Virus record (IMG/VR): IMGVR_UViG_2563366825_000024
Direction: 5' to 3' (one strand)
DNA: 16,481 nucleotides
DNA from: a virus
Taxonomy: Duplodnaviria; Heunggongvirae; Uroviricota; Caudoviricetes
Under the pieces are notes generated by a model. The model saw only the letters and a list, made by a program, of their open reading frames with translations. It searched no databases and was not told the origin of the DNA. The translations under genes were made by a program, and so were the position numbers. Shown one piece after another: positions 8,908 through 16,481 of the stretch (position 1 is the stretch's first letter; each line of letters starts with the position of its first letter).

Positions 8908-8963
8908 ATCGGCTGAACCTCAGCAACCAGTTGACGGGGACTTTCGTCCCCGTCGCGGTTTTC

Positions 8964-9104
8964 CTACTGCTTACACTGTAAGAACGCCGCAAACTCCGCT
9001 CCCCACAAATTCAGCCGGAACTCACACAACGAGCCGTGTAACATCCAGATGGTGAAGATTACCGTCATACAAATTGTGACGGTGATGAGCGATTTTTGCG
9101 ACAT
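8964..9104 (-). CDS. Hok/Gef-family-like type I toxin, 46 aa small membrane protein (MSQKSLITVTICMTVIFTIWMLHGSLCEFRLNLWGAEFAAFLQCKQ)
   Basis: Not in the ORF track (below its size cutoff). ATG at 9102-9104 with AGGAGG (plus 9113-9118) 8 nt upstream; stop TAG at 8964-8966. N-terminal hydrophobic helix, then SLCE-x-R ... E-x-AAF-L-x-CK, which matches my recollection of the Hok/HokA/PndA pattern. Confidence 0.6.
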   Translation of the reverse strand: MSQKSLITVTICMTVIFTIWMLHGSLCEFRLNLWGAEFAAFLQCKQ

Positions 9105-9288
9105 AGCGCTTGCCTCCTGAGTGGAGAGGCGCTAACCTTCTACTTGCTTAAGGTATGATGGTTAGGGCCTCGGGTTAAACAAAATGTTTGACTCGGGGCC
9201 TTTCCACATCAGGCCTTCAGGTTCTCCCTCCAGCCATCAGCCGAAAGGCACCCGCGCATAATCTACGATTTTTGCCCTGCACGGGCAA

Positions 9289-9314
9289 CAAAAAACCCGC
9301 CATCACAGCGGGTT
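9289..9314 (-). terminator. Putative intrinsic terminator downstream of the Ail/Lom-like gene
   Basis: On the minus strand: AACCCGC-TGTGATG-GCGGGTT followed by TTTTTTG, about 23 nt after the TGA at 9337-9339. Confidence 0.5.
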
Positions 9315-9336
9315 ATGACATGTTGTCGGGTATTAC

Positions 9337-10074
9337 TCAGAATTTCAGGCCAATGCCTGCAAATAAACCATCAGTTTTCCAGTCGCCAGAGCCTGAGCTT
9401 TCATAAGTGACGTCCATAGTAACACTTTCATTGAAGTTAAATTGCGCGCCGACAGACCATGCAATAGACGTTTTTTTGGTGCTGTTACTTTCAGAAAAAC
9501 TACCGGCACCATGATTAAGATTGTCGTTAATTTTCAAGTCAGTGGTGACTTTTGCAACCCCCATGCCAGCCATTGCATACACACTGAGGTATTCGTTAAA
9601 CCGCCACGAAGGACCGGATAGTAGACTCCAGTAATTAGCCCTGATATCAGTTCTCGCTGAAGCTGCCGGGTTTTTTACCTCTCGTGATGGATCGGAAGGC
9701 TTAACATCAATAAATGCCTGCGCATTAGTCATGGAGCGCGCCCATGTAAAAGAGGCTATAACACCCAGTTCATCAGTTATCTCGTAACGATACCTGATGC
9801 TCATCCCCAGGGGGCTTTTGGCTGTGCCGTCATGCCCCCGGGCAATAGCATTTTCGTATTCAGCTGATGAATTAAAATGGTTTACGTTTACAACATTCCT
9901 GAACGTATCCCGGTTATAAACACCCGCGTCTCTAACAAAATCCTTCAGCCCGGGGAAGCGTATGTGTGCAAACCCGAGAGATACCGTACTATCGCCTGAT
10001 GCTGCATTTACCTGTGCAGTTAAGCAACTCATCACCAGAACTGCACACGCAAAAAATTTCATGATACTTTTCAT
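9337..10074 (-). CDS. Outer-membrane beta-barrel protein, Ail/Lom/PagC/OmpX-like (245 aa, longer than typical members)
   Basis: N-terminal signal peptide ending AQVNA-AS. Internal IRYRYE resembles the family signature; C-terminus GIGLKF ends in Phe as is typical for OMPs. True ATG at 10072-10074, second in-frame ATG 4 codons later. AT-rich. Confidence 0.65.
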   Translation of the reverse strand: MKSIMKFFACAVLVMSCLTAQVNAASGDSTVSLGFAHIRFPGLKDFVRDAGVYNRDTFRNVVNVNHFNSSAEYENAIARGHDGTAKSPLGMSIRYRYEITDELGVIASFTWARSMTNAQAFIDVKPSDPSREVKNPAASARTDIRANYWSLLSGPSWRFNEYLSVYAMAGMGVAKVTTDLKINDNLNHGAGSFSESNSTKKTSIAWSVGAQFNFNESVTMDVTYESSGSGDWKTDGLFAGIGLKF

Positions 10075-10153
10075 TTTAAGTATTTCTCTGAATTAAAGGA
10101 TGCGATGTCTGAAAGGAACGCTTTCGTTTTACACTATTAAAGTTTTTCTTACG

Positions 10154-10780
10154 CTAATCATATATTGAGGAATTAATAACCAGAACTTTATCTATATACG
10201 GCTTCCGAATATCCCATGTTGCACGACCGGAATAATGCTCACAGGAATATATTTTATTTCCTGTAGCCCCCGTTGATGTGGTGTAAATCGGTCGGTCATA
10301 AGGTGTACGCTGCCAGTTATAATACCCAACCAGTGCAGGCATAATTGCGCATGGATATCCAAGATCCTTCTCAAACTTGATATCAACTGGTATTAACTTC
10401 GCGTCAAGCAGCATCATTTCGCCATGGTAAATCATCTCACCCGACGGGTTATACATGGCAATACCATACTCAGAAGGTTGAGTAACCATATTCGCAAAAG
10501 CATAAACAGTCGTAACACCAGGATTCGTTCCCCTGACAATTTGATGAAGCCTTAAGGCATGATATCCATCAATCTGTTCATGTGTGTACATGACATCGGC
10601 CTTTTTCTCTGTTCTGATAAAGAAAAAACAACTTTTTCCTGACGGGATTGATGTTTTAAAAAAAGCCTTCTCAGTCGCCGGAATAGTTCCCTTATTGATC
10701 AGACACTGAGGCGTAAACCCCGGGCTTATCCACAAGCTGCCATCTGGTTTCGTAATGCTTAAACCATACATACAACTCAC
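10154..10780 (-). CDS. Hypothetical protein (208 aa from GTG 10780; 205 aa from first ATG at 10771)
   Basis: Track start is GTG, overlapping the TGA of the upstream 68-aa ORF. First ATG (10769-10771) has GGGGGTGA 5-6 nt upstream. Cys/Tyr-containing, no recognisable signal peptide or family. AT-rich. Confidence 0.5.
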   Translation of the reverse strand: MSCMYGLSITKPDGSLWISPGFTPQCLINKGTIPATEKAFFKTSIPSGKSCFFFIRTEKKADVMYTHEQIDGYHALRLHQIVRGTNPGVTTVYAFANMVTQPSEYGIAMYNPSGEMIYHGEMMLLDAKLIPVDIKFEKDLGYPCAIMPALVGYYNWQRTPYDRPIYTTSTGATGNKIYSCEHYSGRATWDIRKPYIDKVLVINSSIYD

Positions 10781-10959
10781 CCCCAGAATGTATAAATATA
10801 TGACCCCATCCCCTGCTCAAGATTCGACCACGTCACCGTATTGCCATTAATGGTTATCTTCGGTACTTTCCGGTCCTTAAATACATTATTCCACGGAAAT
10901 AATGAACAGACTGCCTGCAATGTTTTCCCTTCTGGTTTATTCGTATACGTTTTTGATCC

Positions 10960-10983
<24 letters not shown>
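10777..10983 (-). CDS. 68-aa ORF, possibly the 3' remnant of a gene interrupted by the adjacent IS3-family element
   Basis: ATG at 10981-10983 lies at the IS boundary. The same frame stays open upstream into the IS-derived sequence, so the native N-terminus may have been displaced. Stop overlaps the start of the 208-aa ORF. Confidence 0.4.
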
Positions 10984-13119
<2,136 letters not shown>

Positions 13120-14055
13120 ACAGCGTATTTTGCACAGGAGTCGCTGAAAAATACGCGTTAATCGAACAATGGCGACAACAATTTCCCATTGAAGCGATGT
13201 GTCAGGTATTTGGTGTATCCAGGAGCGGTTATTACAACTGGGTACAGCATGAACCCTCAGACAGAAAACAAAGTGATGAGCGGCTAAAACTGGAGATTAA
13301 GGTGGCACATATCCGCACTCGCGAAACATATGGAACCCGGCGGCTCCAGACGGAGCTGGCAGAGAATGGCATCATCGTTGGTCGTGACCAACTGGCACGT
13401 CTTCGTAAGGAGCTAAGGCTACGCTGTAAGCAGAAACGCAAGTTCAGAGCGACTACGAACTCGAACCACAATCTGCCAGTTGCGCCAAATCTGCTGAACC
13501 AGACGTTCGCTCCTACAGCACCAAATCAGGTCTGGGTGGCGGACCTGACGTATGTTGCCACACAGGAGGGATGGTTGTACCTCGCTGGCATCAAAGATGT
13601 TTATACGTGCGAAATTGTCGGCTACGCCATGGGAGAGCGCATGACAAAAGAGCTGACAGGTAAAGCCCTGTTTATGGCGCTCAGGAGCCAGCGCCCACCT
13701 GCCGGGCTAATCCACCACTCTGATCGAGGTTCACAGTACTGCGCATACGATTACCGGGTCATACAGGAGCAGTTTGGTCTGAAAACATCAATGTCGCGTA
13801 AAGGTAACTGTTACGACAACGCTCCGATGGAAAGCTTCTGGGGAACGCTGAAAAATGAGAGCCTGAGCCACTATCGTTTTAATAACCGGGATGAAGCCAT
13901 CTCAGTAATACGGGAATACATTGAGATTTTCTACAATCGTCAGCGTCGTCACTCTCGTCTGGGGAATATCTCCCCGGCAGCCTTCAGGGAAAAATATCAT
14001 CAGATGGCTGCTTAAAAAAAGAACAAATGGTAGTGTCCGCTATTGCCAGTACACC
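13120..14055 (+). mobile_element. Second, different IS3-family element, 5'-truncated (orfA replaced by IS30); right end approximate
   Basis: OrfB frame is open from the IS30 junction (NSVFCTGVAEKYALIEQWRQQFPIEAMCQVFGVSRSGYYNW...) to TAA at 14013-14015. DDE motifs HHSDRGSQYCA and GNCYDNAPMESFW. Sequence is distinct from the left-hand IS3-family copy. Confidence 0.7.
13197..14015 (+). pseudogene. IS3-family transposase OrfB segment (272 aa from internal ATG), no orfA present
   Basis: Track ORF. The upstream in-frame region lacks the OrfA frame and frameshift window, so a normal OrfAB transposase cannot be made. Confidence 0.7.
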
Positions 14056-15730
14056 TCAGAACCCCGTTCTCCAGCGGAGTGATTTTCACTCCTTTATCTG
14101 AAATATCAACATCCGGCAGCTCACCGGCAAGAGCCATTGCGTTAACTTCTTCCAGACGAGATGCAAGAAGCGTCATACGGGCCTGAAGATATGCATGGCA
14201 ATCAGTCTGCACAGCCAGTTGTAACTGGTCATTTTGTCGGGATTTATCAAATTCAGTGACCGGGATAAGATAATCATCAAAATTTCTGTAACGACGCGAC
14301 CCTTTTACCCAAATATCTCCGGAACGTAACGCCCCCTTGAGTTCATTCAGTACACAAAACTCATAGTATTTTCGATTGATGCCTGAAGGCGTTAATACCA
14401 GTTTTCGCCAGCTTTCAGGAATAAATGCTGTTGGCGCTGTAGGCGGAACGTTACGAAGCTGCTTACGGTATATTTCCCTTATAGTATCCAGTGCATCGCT
14501 GAGCGGCTGCGCCGCAGGTGTCGCTACAAACTGCAATGCTGACAACATTCGTGGAGCGTATTTTCGAAGTGTGCTGTATTTTTCGGTGATCAGGTGAAGA
14601 GGATCGAAATTACCTTTACGGGACAGCAACTGTGTTTCTTCCAGGCTGTTGACGAACTCCTGCCTGGGAATAACATCTTCTATCGCGGCCCAGGGATCTT
14701 CACCTGACTTTCTGGCATGCAGTAGCGCCTGACCGACAGTAACATATTGTCTTAACTTGCTCTGGATAAGTTTGCCTGTTAACTGAAGCCTCTCGGCTTG
14801 TGTGCGTTTTGCCTGGCTGAACAGACCGCCCATAATGCGTTCGTGTAGCTCGATAACTTCATCAGTCAATGTTGCTCTGGCTTCCTGAATGACACAAACC
14901 AGCGTAGCGTAACGTCTGATATCGGTGAATTTTGCCAGATCTCTGCTGCTCATTTTTCGGCCCTCACGCGCCAGTTTGAGTAATTTGTTCTGGTGAACGG
15001 AAAGCTCAATACCATCAGGTAATTCCAGCGCGGTGATAGAATTAAGTCGATCGATATGTTGCAGCACGTTTTTACCGTTAATTTTACCGGGAGGCTGAAG
15101 TAGCCACGCAAGTCGGGAAGGTTGTTCCCCTTCTGATATGAGCAGGCTGTCGAGTGCAGATCTATGCTGCTTTCCCAGTTGTGTCGTAAGTGCCGAAAAA
15201 ACAGATCTGTCAGCAAGTGTGACGGCTTCGGCAAGCGTCCGTTCGATCACATCAACCGACGGGAAAATAACATTATTGTTATGTAGCCAACTGAGCATTT
15301 CCTCCGCCAGAGTAAATCCTTTATCTGTTCGCATGGCATAGGAATGCAGATGCCGAATGCAGTCTTTTTGCAGAGTTCGGCTGAACGGAGATAATTTCAG
15401 GTAGCGATAAAGTTCAGCCAGATGCTCCCAGCGGGTTTGCTCTCTGGCTGCATATTCATGCCATAAATCGGGCTGAAGCTTCAGTCTTGAAGCAATTCTG
15501 GATACAACGCCACAGTGGGGAACATTATTTTTGTCCGGAACAAATCCAGGCCCACGCAGGTAACAGAGTAATACCGCAAAGCCCAGGCGATTAGCTGGAC
15601 GCCGGTGCTTATTAATGAGAGCAATATCTTTATCACAAAGAAAACACATTCTGGTCAGAATAATTTCATCATCTGGTATAACCAGCAGGCGAGCTTGCTC
15701 TTCACTACTCAGTATTTGTCGCCGTGGCAT
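14012..15730 (-). pseudogene. tnpA: Tn3-family transposase TnpA, N-terminal about 556 aa only; C-terminal catalytic region removed at the IS3-family junction
   Basis: Starts MPRRQILSSEEQARLLVIPDDE...ANRLGFAVLLCYLR, resembling Tn21/Tn3-family TnpA N-termini from memory. TnpA-like sequence stops near ...KITPLENG; the last 16 codons and the stop are encoded by the IS end sequence. Confidence 0.75.
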
Positions 15731-15890
15731 GAATGCTTCCCTCGTGTAAAGTTTTCATATGTTATGGATTTGTTGTGACCGAAAACGACCGGTTTCGGAC
15801 ATTGTTAAACAGATATATCCGAAAGTCAGCGAAATTACTTTCGGACATGCATTATAATATGTACACCTATTTCGTACAGAAGATCTCACT
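15731..15890. promoter_or_regulatory. res-like resolution site and divergent promoter region between tnpA and tnpR
   Basis: TTTCGGACAT occurs twice (15793-15802 and 15839-15848). Perfect 9-bp inverted repeat TCCGAAAGT/ACTTTCGGA (15818-15826 and 15837-15845) with 10-bp spacer; imperfect pair GACCGAAAAC/GTTTCGGAC around 15777-15800. Consensus-like TATAAT at 15853-15858, 33 nt upstream of the tnpR ATG. Confidence 0.6.
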
Positions 15891-16481
15891 ATGTCTCGAA
15901 TTTTTGCCTATTGTCGGGTTTCCACTCTGGAACAGACGACCGAAAATCAACGTCGGGAAATCGAAAGCGCGGGTTTTAACGTCAGACCCCAACGAATAAT
16001 CGAAGAACAAATTAGTGGCTCAGTAGCAACCAGTGAACGTCCTAGTTTTAACCGGTTGCTTGATCGTCTGGAAAGTGGCGATGTATTGATAGTCACAAAA
16101 CTGGATCGCCTCGGTCGTAATGCAATGGATATCAGGAAAACAGTGGAGCAACTGACCGAATCTGGCATCAGGGTGCATTGCCTGGCATTAGGTGGTGTTG
16201 ATCTGACCAGTCCGGCAGGAAAAATGACAATGCAAGTGATTTCAGCGGTCGCTGAATTTGAACGAGATCTTTTACTTGAACGAACTTATTCAGGGATAGC
16301 AAGAGCACGGGATGCAGGAAAACGTTTTGGTCGCCCACCGGTATTAAATGAAGAACAAAAACAGAAGGTACTCGAACGCATTAAGTCTGGGGCAAGTATA
16401 AGTGCTATTGCCAGGGAATTCCGAACCACACGGCAAACAATTCTGAGAGTTAGAGCGAAACAGCAAACTGTTACTGTATAG
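15891..16481 (+). CDS. tnpR: Serine recombinase, resolvase/invertase family (196 aa), probable transposon resolvase
   Basis: ATG at 15891, stop at 16479-16481. N-terminal catalytic motif YCRVSTLEQ, then LDRLGR and AEFER; C-terminal helix-turn-helix-like tail. Divergent from a Tn3-family tnpA across a res-like site. Confidence 0.8.

Follow-up and report, generated by a model that had tools for sequence, protein, structure and literature searches.

The locus described here is very likely a functional, antisense-regulated toxin-antitoxin cassette of the type I hok/sok kind, carried on a Shiga-toxin (Stx) prophage. It lies in a window of 16,481 nucleotides (the whole stretch of DNA that was analysed), on the minus strand of which a 46-aa open reading frame is a real gene of the Hok/Gef family, under purifying selection and nearest to HokA. 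The surrounding hok/sok-type cassette, 9288..8899, is conserved as a unit across differing genomic contexts. The toxin gene itself is already known, as RefSeq, PHROGs and a survey of Hok homologues all have it and its peptide is reported among the toxic constructs.

The original prediction had described a 46-aa minus-strand ORF preceded by AGGAGG with an 8-nt spacer and encoding a hydrophobic N-terminal helix followed by SLCEFR...GAEFAAFLQCK. The ORF listing and the coordinates agree with this description.

8964..9104, minus strand: hok coding sequence, ATG start, 46 aa plus stop, peptide MSQKSLITVTICMTVIFTIWMLHGSLCEFRLNLWGAEFAAFLQCKQ
9118..9113, minus strand: hok Shine-Dalgarno (SD) sequence AGGAGG, 8-nt spacer CAAGCGCT before the ATG at 9104

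Short ORFs are common around hok, with 20 of at least 20 aa overlapping the 1.2 kb at 8500..9700 in the ORF listing, and the existence of a 46-aa ORF alone therefore proves nothing. The ORF goes beyond chance because of its match to the Pfam family HOK_GEF (PF01848; 33.2 bits against a gathering cut-off of 22, E 4e-8, Hok residues 8-44 on profile positions 6-42 of 42), its full-length match to PHROG 251, 'MokW-like host killing' (85.8 bits, E 2.8e-24), and the way in which it has diverged: compared to the copy in phage 933W, the coding sequence has 7 synonymous and 0 non-synonymous differences (dN/dS 0), and compared to more distant copies dN/dS is 0.18-0.40. The Hok/Gef HMM search that had been proposed as a check thus came out in favour of the family. 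The peptide also has the Hok/Gef build, with 46 aa, one N-terminal hydrophobic helix (residues 6-22, LITVTICMTVIFTIWML, Kyte-Doolittle mean 2.32) and a polar C-terminal part that contains L26-C27-E28 and E37; it carries C44 as well. A protein search gave 56 relatives, found in E. coli, Shigella and Salmonella; almost all have 46 aa, and those with a source name are called 'Hok/Gef family protein'. Their alignment shows no change at M1, Q3, C27, A39 and F41 and very little in the GSLCE and AEFAAFLQCK blocks. The seven positions conserved in >80% of Hok proteins in the survey (M1, C16, T18, L30, C31, E32 and E41; bioRxiv 10.1101/2025.08.07.668861) all have counterparts here by manual mapping (M1, C12, T14, L26, C27, E28 and E37).

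The best named match is HokA of E. coli K-12 (b4455), with 45% identity over 47 residues in BLASTP, compared to 37% identity to HokW of phage 933W. With HokA the peptide has in common the M.QK start, the TWM/IWM end of the helix, SLCE, AAFL.CK and both cysteines, so that the Hok/HokA pattern named in the original prediction is found again in the alignment. However, HokA has 50 aa compared to 46 aa in the window Hok, at hokA a mokA leader is annotated, in K-12 as a pseudogene, whereas the window locus is without mok, and the survey puts HokA and the window Hok in separate 60%-identity clusters, 93 and 72, respectively. The best NCBIfam match, the HokA equivalog NF007290, scores 38.4 bits and does not reach its cut-off of 89, and the Hok-family subfamily model, with 22.7 bits, does not reach its cut-off of 73. 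The score under the HokA equivalog cut-off therefore places the peptide in a divergent HokA-like branch, not as a HokA orthologue.

The first part of the window, 1..10982, is 100% identical to an annotated E. coli chromosome segment, where the annotated order is a giant LPD38 protein, hypothetical genes, a 'bacteriocin', a Hok/Gef family protein and Ail/Lom. The hok cassette belongs to a 933W-like Shiga-toxin prophage, in which it is an accessory gene ('moron') flanked by lom and by the next accessory gene; the terminator of lom forms its upstream edge.

9337..10074, upstream of the hok cassette: lom ORF, Pfam Ail_Lom 102.7 bits
9294..9314, minus strand: intrinsic terminator of lom, AACCCGCTGTGATGGCGGGTT then TTTTTGTT (terminator scan)

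The 551-nt hok locus is present in 1551 of the 5426 complete E. coli genomes and in 198 phage records, mostly of Stx2a-converting phages. It is 99.8% identical in O157, O26, O103 and O145 STEC, where the ORF is WP_000078907.1 in RefSeq, and this protein is named "Hok/Gef family protein" and annotated by RefSeq/PGAP in many E. coli genomes. The reference record of phage 933W encodes the identical 46-aa Hok at 45660..45800 (1661..1801 of our locus L002), inside a gap at 45428..45856 that carries no annotation. The identical Hok is likewise unannotated in the record of the Sakai prophage Sp5, at 1292619..1292759 (22620..22760 of L092), between ECs_1236 (lom) and ECs_1237. The claim of the original prediction that the gene is unannotated therefore stands for these two reference records and fails beyond them, since RefSeq, PHROGs and the survey have it. 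Both records also carry hokW/mokW/sokW at another site, and there are therefore two Hok loci per phage. No defence-system model of PADLOC matched Hok or its neighbours.

Some other features of the window were observed along with the cassette. The prophage ends abruptly, and the remaining 10983..16481 contains IS30, IS600, a Tn3-family/DUF4158 transposase fragment and a recombinase, and is 99.9-100% identical to E. coli plasmids. In a 68-aa ORF at 10777..10983 on the minus strand, the match to PHROG 557 'outer membrane protein' begins only at profile position 25, and the ORF therefore appears to be cut by the junction at ~10982. An 83-aa ORF at 7046..7297 on the minus strand, called 'bacteriocin' in RefSeq and having in Pfam only sub-threshold matches to Gly-zipper and class IIc bacteriocin families, is another small membrane-type protein in the accessory gene block of hok.

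The identical peptide is 72_1589 of the 'high abundance' cluster 72 in the survey (Escalera-Maurer et al., bioRxiv 10.1101/2025.08.07.668861; 2026 preprint), which reports that hok is enriched in prophages. In the same work the 72_1589 coding sequence was cloned under an arabinose promoter as pAZ3::72_1589 (LRP157), the constructs consisting of the coding sequence only behind a fixed SD, and 42 of the 45 tested homologues were toxic (bioRxiv 10.1101/2025.08.07.668861). The three constructs named as non-toxic do not include 72_1589, and the toxicity on induced expression that the original prediction had proposed as a check can thus be read from that work. The survey analysed the coding sequence only and set mok, Sok and mRNA structure aside (bioRxiv 10.1101/2025.08.07.668861), and the RNA-level anatomy of the cassette is therefore not in it. 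Our literature search found no RNA-level description of this particular locus. In the supplements of the survey the 5' end of the mRNA had no ungapped match, in a file that is a gapped alignment and in which a match could be missed.

The anatomy of the cassette was read from a comparative set in which prophage and genome contigs together gave 46 distinct copies of the locus. The set was supplied mainly by the scan of viral contigs; the scan of genome contigs contributed 7 loci only, three of them under implausible organism names. These three, filed as Xanthomonas pisi, a Planococcaceae MAG and Vagococcus sp. (L005, L006 and L008), carry the cassette at 76-100% protein identity, and such copies of an enterobacterial prophage cassette are probably assembly contamination. 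When cassette copies in unrelated flanks are compared, the common sequence extends only from the -35 box TTGCCC (9288..9283) to GGCACCC (8905..8899), and homology ends within a few bases of either element. The elements between these limits that belong to hok are the following.

9260..9288, minus strand: predicted hok promoter, -35 TTGCCC 9288..9283, 17-nt spacer, -10 TAGATT 9265..9260; predicted +1 G at 9253
8899..9253, minus strand: predicted core of the hok mRNA (355 nt), bounded by 5' GGGUGCC and 3' GGCACCC
9253..9247, minus strand: tac-like 5' element GGGUGCC, paired with 8905..8899 in 99.4% of alignment cells
8899..8917, minus strand: fbi-like 3' element, UUCAGCCGA (8917..8909) and GGCACCC (8905..8899)
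9205..9195, minus strand: ucb-like element GGAAAGGCCCC, with which the mRNA 5' end can pair locally instead
8933..8955, minus strand: G+C-rich conserved hairpin directly 3' of the hok stop, without a U-tract on this strand

The promoter form TTGNNN-17-TA.A.T is kept in homologous cassettes with unrelated flanks, and the same layout is found at hokW. A simple consensus promoter scan listed neither this promoter nor that of the Sok-like RNA described below (each has 8 of 12 consensus matches), and the two promoter predictions are therefore founded on conservation and on the collinear layout of hokW/sokW.

Folding of the minus strand of 8880..9253 gave a minimum free energy (MFE) of -159.2 kcal/mol (z = -5.7) with the two ends paired, and the 5' and 3' ends close in the MFE structures of 45 of the 46 distinct homologues. 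Around the tac/fbi core lies an 8-bp helix of UCGGCUGA with UCAGCCGA (alignment columns 10-17 with 358-365), and the 15 core and flanking pairs are paired in 93.6% of cells, compared to 23-48% with slid 3' partners. The 7-bp core is invariant and therefore has no covariation support; the support comes from its conservation and from the flanking helix, which shows wobble and a few compensatory double changes. The RNAalifold consensus favours a local hairpin at the 5' end (columns 1-14 with 47-60), and when the 3' 40 nt were deleted in silico, the 5' end refolded onto the ucb-like element in 44 of the 46 homologues. In the hairpin 3' of the stop, RNAalifold pairs columns 316-324 with 331-339, and compensatory changes occur at two of these pairs, one with AU/GC in 27/19 rows and the other with CG/AU/GC in 19/19/6 rows. 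Rfam at gathering thresholds had no match in the whole window, and a permissive search placed the sok family RF01794 at 9093..9253 on the minus strand with 42.1 bits (E 5.3e-8), compared to a gathering score of 59. Some variant cassettes keep the Hok ORF intact and have a damaged 5' end: in L028 (~2364..2706) the promoter and tac region are swapped for unrelated sequence, and L063 and L064, with hok at 2501..2641, have GGACACC as tac, a sequence unable to pair with GGCACCC, together with a divergent Sok hairpin. These three may be decaying copies.

The original prediction had also pointed to an antisense RNA on the plus strand, and the in silico evidence favours such a gene, with a conserved promoter, an antisense-favoured hairpin and collinearity with sokW.

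9110..9138, plus strand: predicted Sok-like promoter, -35 TTGCCT 9110..9115, 17-nt spacer, -10 TAACCT 9133..9138
~9145..9203, plus strand: predicted Sok-like antisense RNA, ~59 nt, a ~20-nt single-stranded 5' tail and a hairpin
9166..9200, both strands: shared hairpin, the Sok target region in the hok leader and the terminator stem-loop in the Sok-like RNA

All 46 homologues have TAACCT as their -10 box, and the -35 box has the form TTGNNN in 45 and is TTTACT in one; on the opposite strand, the hok SD overlaps this -35 box. TTGCCT-17-TAACCT is also found upstream of the annotated sokW of 933W, as read by eye from the hokW sequence, and the ends given for the Sok-like RNA are those of the annotated sokW (933W 58664..58734) transferred through the alignment. 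The shared hairpin has -21.5 to -28.3 kcal/mol on the antisense strand compared to -11.6 to -18.3 kcal/mol on the sense strand, and it is more stable on the antisense strand in 27 of 27 sequence variants, because the antisense G.U pairs, about three in number, are C.A mismatches on the mRNA strand. As far as the modelled folds go, a strand difference of this kind would be expected from selection on an antisense RNA. The Sok-like antisense RNA is thus a prediction, made on a Sok-type promoter and an antisense-favoured hairpin that are both present in the sequence.

In three respects the cassette departs from the textbook arrangement, namely in mok, in the exposure of the hok SD and in the terminator. 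In plasmid R1, translation of mok up to the hok SD is mandatory for translation of hok (PMC9841398). In the window and in 27 other distinct homologues we found no ORF across the hok ATG that could serve as mok, even with CTG starts allowed, and the remaining 18 homologues have inconsistent ORFs there. The same procedure recovers mokW, which served as a positive control, and in the alignment with hokW a 14-nt gap falls exactly at the mokW ATG. An open frame of ~70 codons was considered as a mok equivalent and rejected, as it occurs in 14 of the 46 variants and is closed in the window. Another candidate was a uORF opened by a nearly invariant ATG at mRNA nt 45 and starting MWKGPE... (MWKGPESNILFNPRP; 9209..9162 on the minus strand, nt 45-92). 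It was rejected as a conserved leader peptide, since it ranges between 8 and 30 codons in length and is lacking in the two most distant copies, those of Citrobacter and S. diarizonae; it probably arises as a side effect of the conserved RNA fold.

If mok is absent, translation of hok must therefore start directly at the strong hok SD. In the models this SD is mostly paired with an upstream CCUCU, with an unpaired probability of ~0.2 (~80% paired) in each modelled state. A switch in its exposure was sought in 14 homologues: the full-length RNA had an unpaired probability of 0.20, the truncated RNA one of 0.27 and the RNA with a blocked Sok target one of 0.22; the modelled trend runs in the right direction and is too small to claim a switch.

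Downstream of the cassette, the terminator scan of the minus strand was empty from 8899 to 8506. In relatives outside the Stx phages an intrinsic terminator follows 20-25 nt past GGCACCC, whereas the Stx-phage version runs into the next gene.

8506..8907, minus strand: 133-aa ORF, PHROG 610, no Pfam match; the RefSeq start, ATG 8907, overlaps fbi
8435..8454, minus strand: first intrinsic terminator downstream of hok, after the 133-aa ORF; likely end of the hok-ORF133 transcript

Without a terminator after fbi, the hok transcript therefore probably reads into the 133-aa gene. As the PHROG 610 match begins only at residue 9 of this ORF and ATG 8883 has a better SD (GGTGAGAG) before it, this ATG is probably the true start of the gene, and with that start the ORF is annotated 8 codons too long and its probable SD lies 6 nt after fbi.

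Among the closest known systems is hokW-mokW-sokW of 933W and Sakai Sp5, which is carried by the same phage type as the window cassette. The two leaders have in common the -10 box, the GGGUGC start, its AAAGCCCC partner, AGGTTAGC, AGGCAAG and the 3' GCACCC, and the predicted Sok-like RNA of the window is collinear in position with the annotated sokW, with identical promoter hexamers. They differ in their toxins, as the low identity between Hok and HokW indicates, and in their site, as the window cassette adjoins lom in the late/accessory region whereas hokW lies near the attR core beside Ant and Ea22-like genes. Moreover, mokW is an in-frame upstream extension of hokW, and its start region is missing in the window cassette. 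The 5' tails of the Sok RNAs differ between the two loci, and cross-regulation therefore seems unlikely, judged by sequence. In Sp5, hokW-sokW has type I toxin-antitoxin behaviour that depends on RNase III and Hfq (Takada et al., PMC8621323), and its deletion halves phage release, hokW-sokW being reported to help lysis at induction (PMC8621323). In Takada et al. (PMC8621323) we came across no reference to another hok locus.

With hok/mok/sok (parB) of R1 the cassette has in common the logic of a Hok toxin, a cis-antisense RNA (a predicted one in the window) directed against the leader, a tac/fbi closure and an alternative 5' hairpin; in the R1 hok mRNA, tac/fbi closes the 5' and 3' ends and tac/ucb forms the alternative hairpin (PMC9841398). 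Unlike R1, the window cassette is without mok and, in its Stx-phage version, without a terminator after fbi, it is located on a prophage and not on a plasmid, and its folds are computed ones.

Sequence and folding, by analogy with the R1 model summarised in PMC9841398, suggest how the cassette may work. A constitutive promoter would give a hok mRNA starting near 9253, in which the 5' GGGUGCC would pair with the 3' GGCACCC and hold the full-length RNA in a closed, inert form. Once the 3' end was lost, the 5' end would refold onto GGAAAGGCCCC, and the Sok-like RNA of ~59 nt (plus strand, ~9145..9203) would pair with the leader and hold Hok off, most likely via RNase III cleavage and decay of the Sok-hok duplex. 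If Sok fell, at loss of the prophage or at induction, Hok would enter the inner membrane, the membrane potential would collapse and the cell would die. By analogy, the physiological role of the cassette could be retention of the prophage, or an aid to lysis at induction as reported for hokW-sokW; addiction and phage exclusion, which the original prediction named for such toxins, would be further candidate roles.

A different possibility is that the locus is a silent relic, in which the ORF is intact and toxic when forced and the native locus never makes Hok, since the R1-type mok has been lost. The lack of an ORF across the hok start in the window and 27 other homologues, the 14-nt gap at the mokW ATG and an SD that stays largely paired in all modelled states would all fit such a relic, and the toxicity in the preprint, obtained with the coding sequence only behind a fixed SD, is compatible with it. 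In addition, the K-12 chromosomal hok loci are reported, in work cited by that preprint (bioRxiv 10.1101/2025.08.07.668861), to be unable to mediate post-segregational killing. However, the coding sequence is under purifying selection, as its 7 synonymous and 0 non-synonymous differences from 933W indicate, the strong SD is in place with its 8-nt spacer, and the Sok -10 box, the hairpin asymmetry and the tac/fbi pairing are retained in E. coli, Salmonella, E. albertii and Citrobacter. A cassette free of toxin would not need an intact antitoxin promoter together with intact toxin residues, and we consider the relic unlikely.

Considerably less probable still is a reading in which the conserved fold serves above all as a 5' leader or regulator of the phage genes downstream, from the 133-aa ORF onwards, with the Hok ORF in a secondary place. 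The missing terminator between hok and the 133-aa ORF, and the position of fbi 6 nt before the probable SD of that ORF, point this way, but where the same cassette is followed by unrelated sequence it carries its own terminator there, and the peptide is under selection within an architecture that matches hok/sok in its entirety. As for a chance short ORF with an accidental likeness to Hok, the abundance of short ORFs in the region is what speaks for it; the Pfam score above the gathering cut-off, the PHROG match, the 56 homologues annotated as Hok/Gef, the synonymous-only divergence and the conserved RNA elements refute it. We thus retain the antisense-regulated hok/sok-type cassette as the preferred interpretation.

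Within this interpretation we also put forward, speculatively and with more doubt than confidence, that the clade represents a mok-independent form of hok/sok. In such a form hok would be translated directly from its own SD, and Sok would act via duplex decay or via a refolding that our models do not capture. The Stx-phage cassette would have lost its terminator, so that hok and the PHROG 610 gene would form one transcript with the 5'-3' closure at the ribosome-binding site of the latter, and the cassette would be a second Hok system in Sp5 and 933W. If this were true, the second system may be partly redundant with hokW-sokW and may blunt the effect of the hokW-sokW deletion, in which phage release was halved.

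For a genome scan the finding is a routine one, as the toxin family is known, RefSeq and PHROGs already name it and the peptide has been tested at the bench. The missing mok, terminator and reference annotation are modest, testable footnotes and not a new system. Nevertheless, the reference records of 933W and Sp5 omit the gene, and hokW-sokW of Sp5 has been studied as if it was the sole Hok system. The presence of two Hok loci is relevant when prophage stability, induced lysis and Stx phage release are measured, and the apparent absence of mok in a conserved and selected clade is a small, testable challenge to the mok requirement derived from R1.
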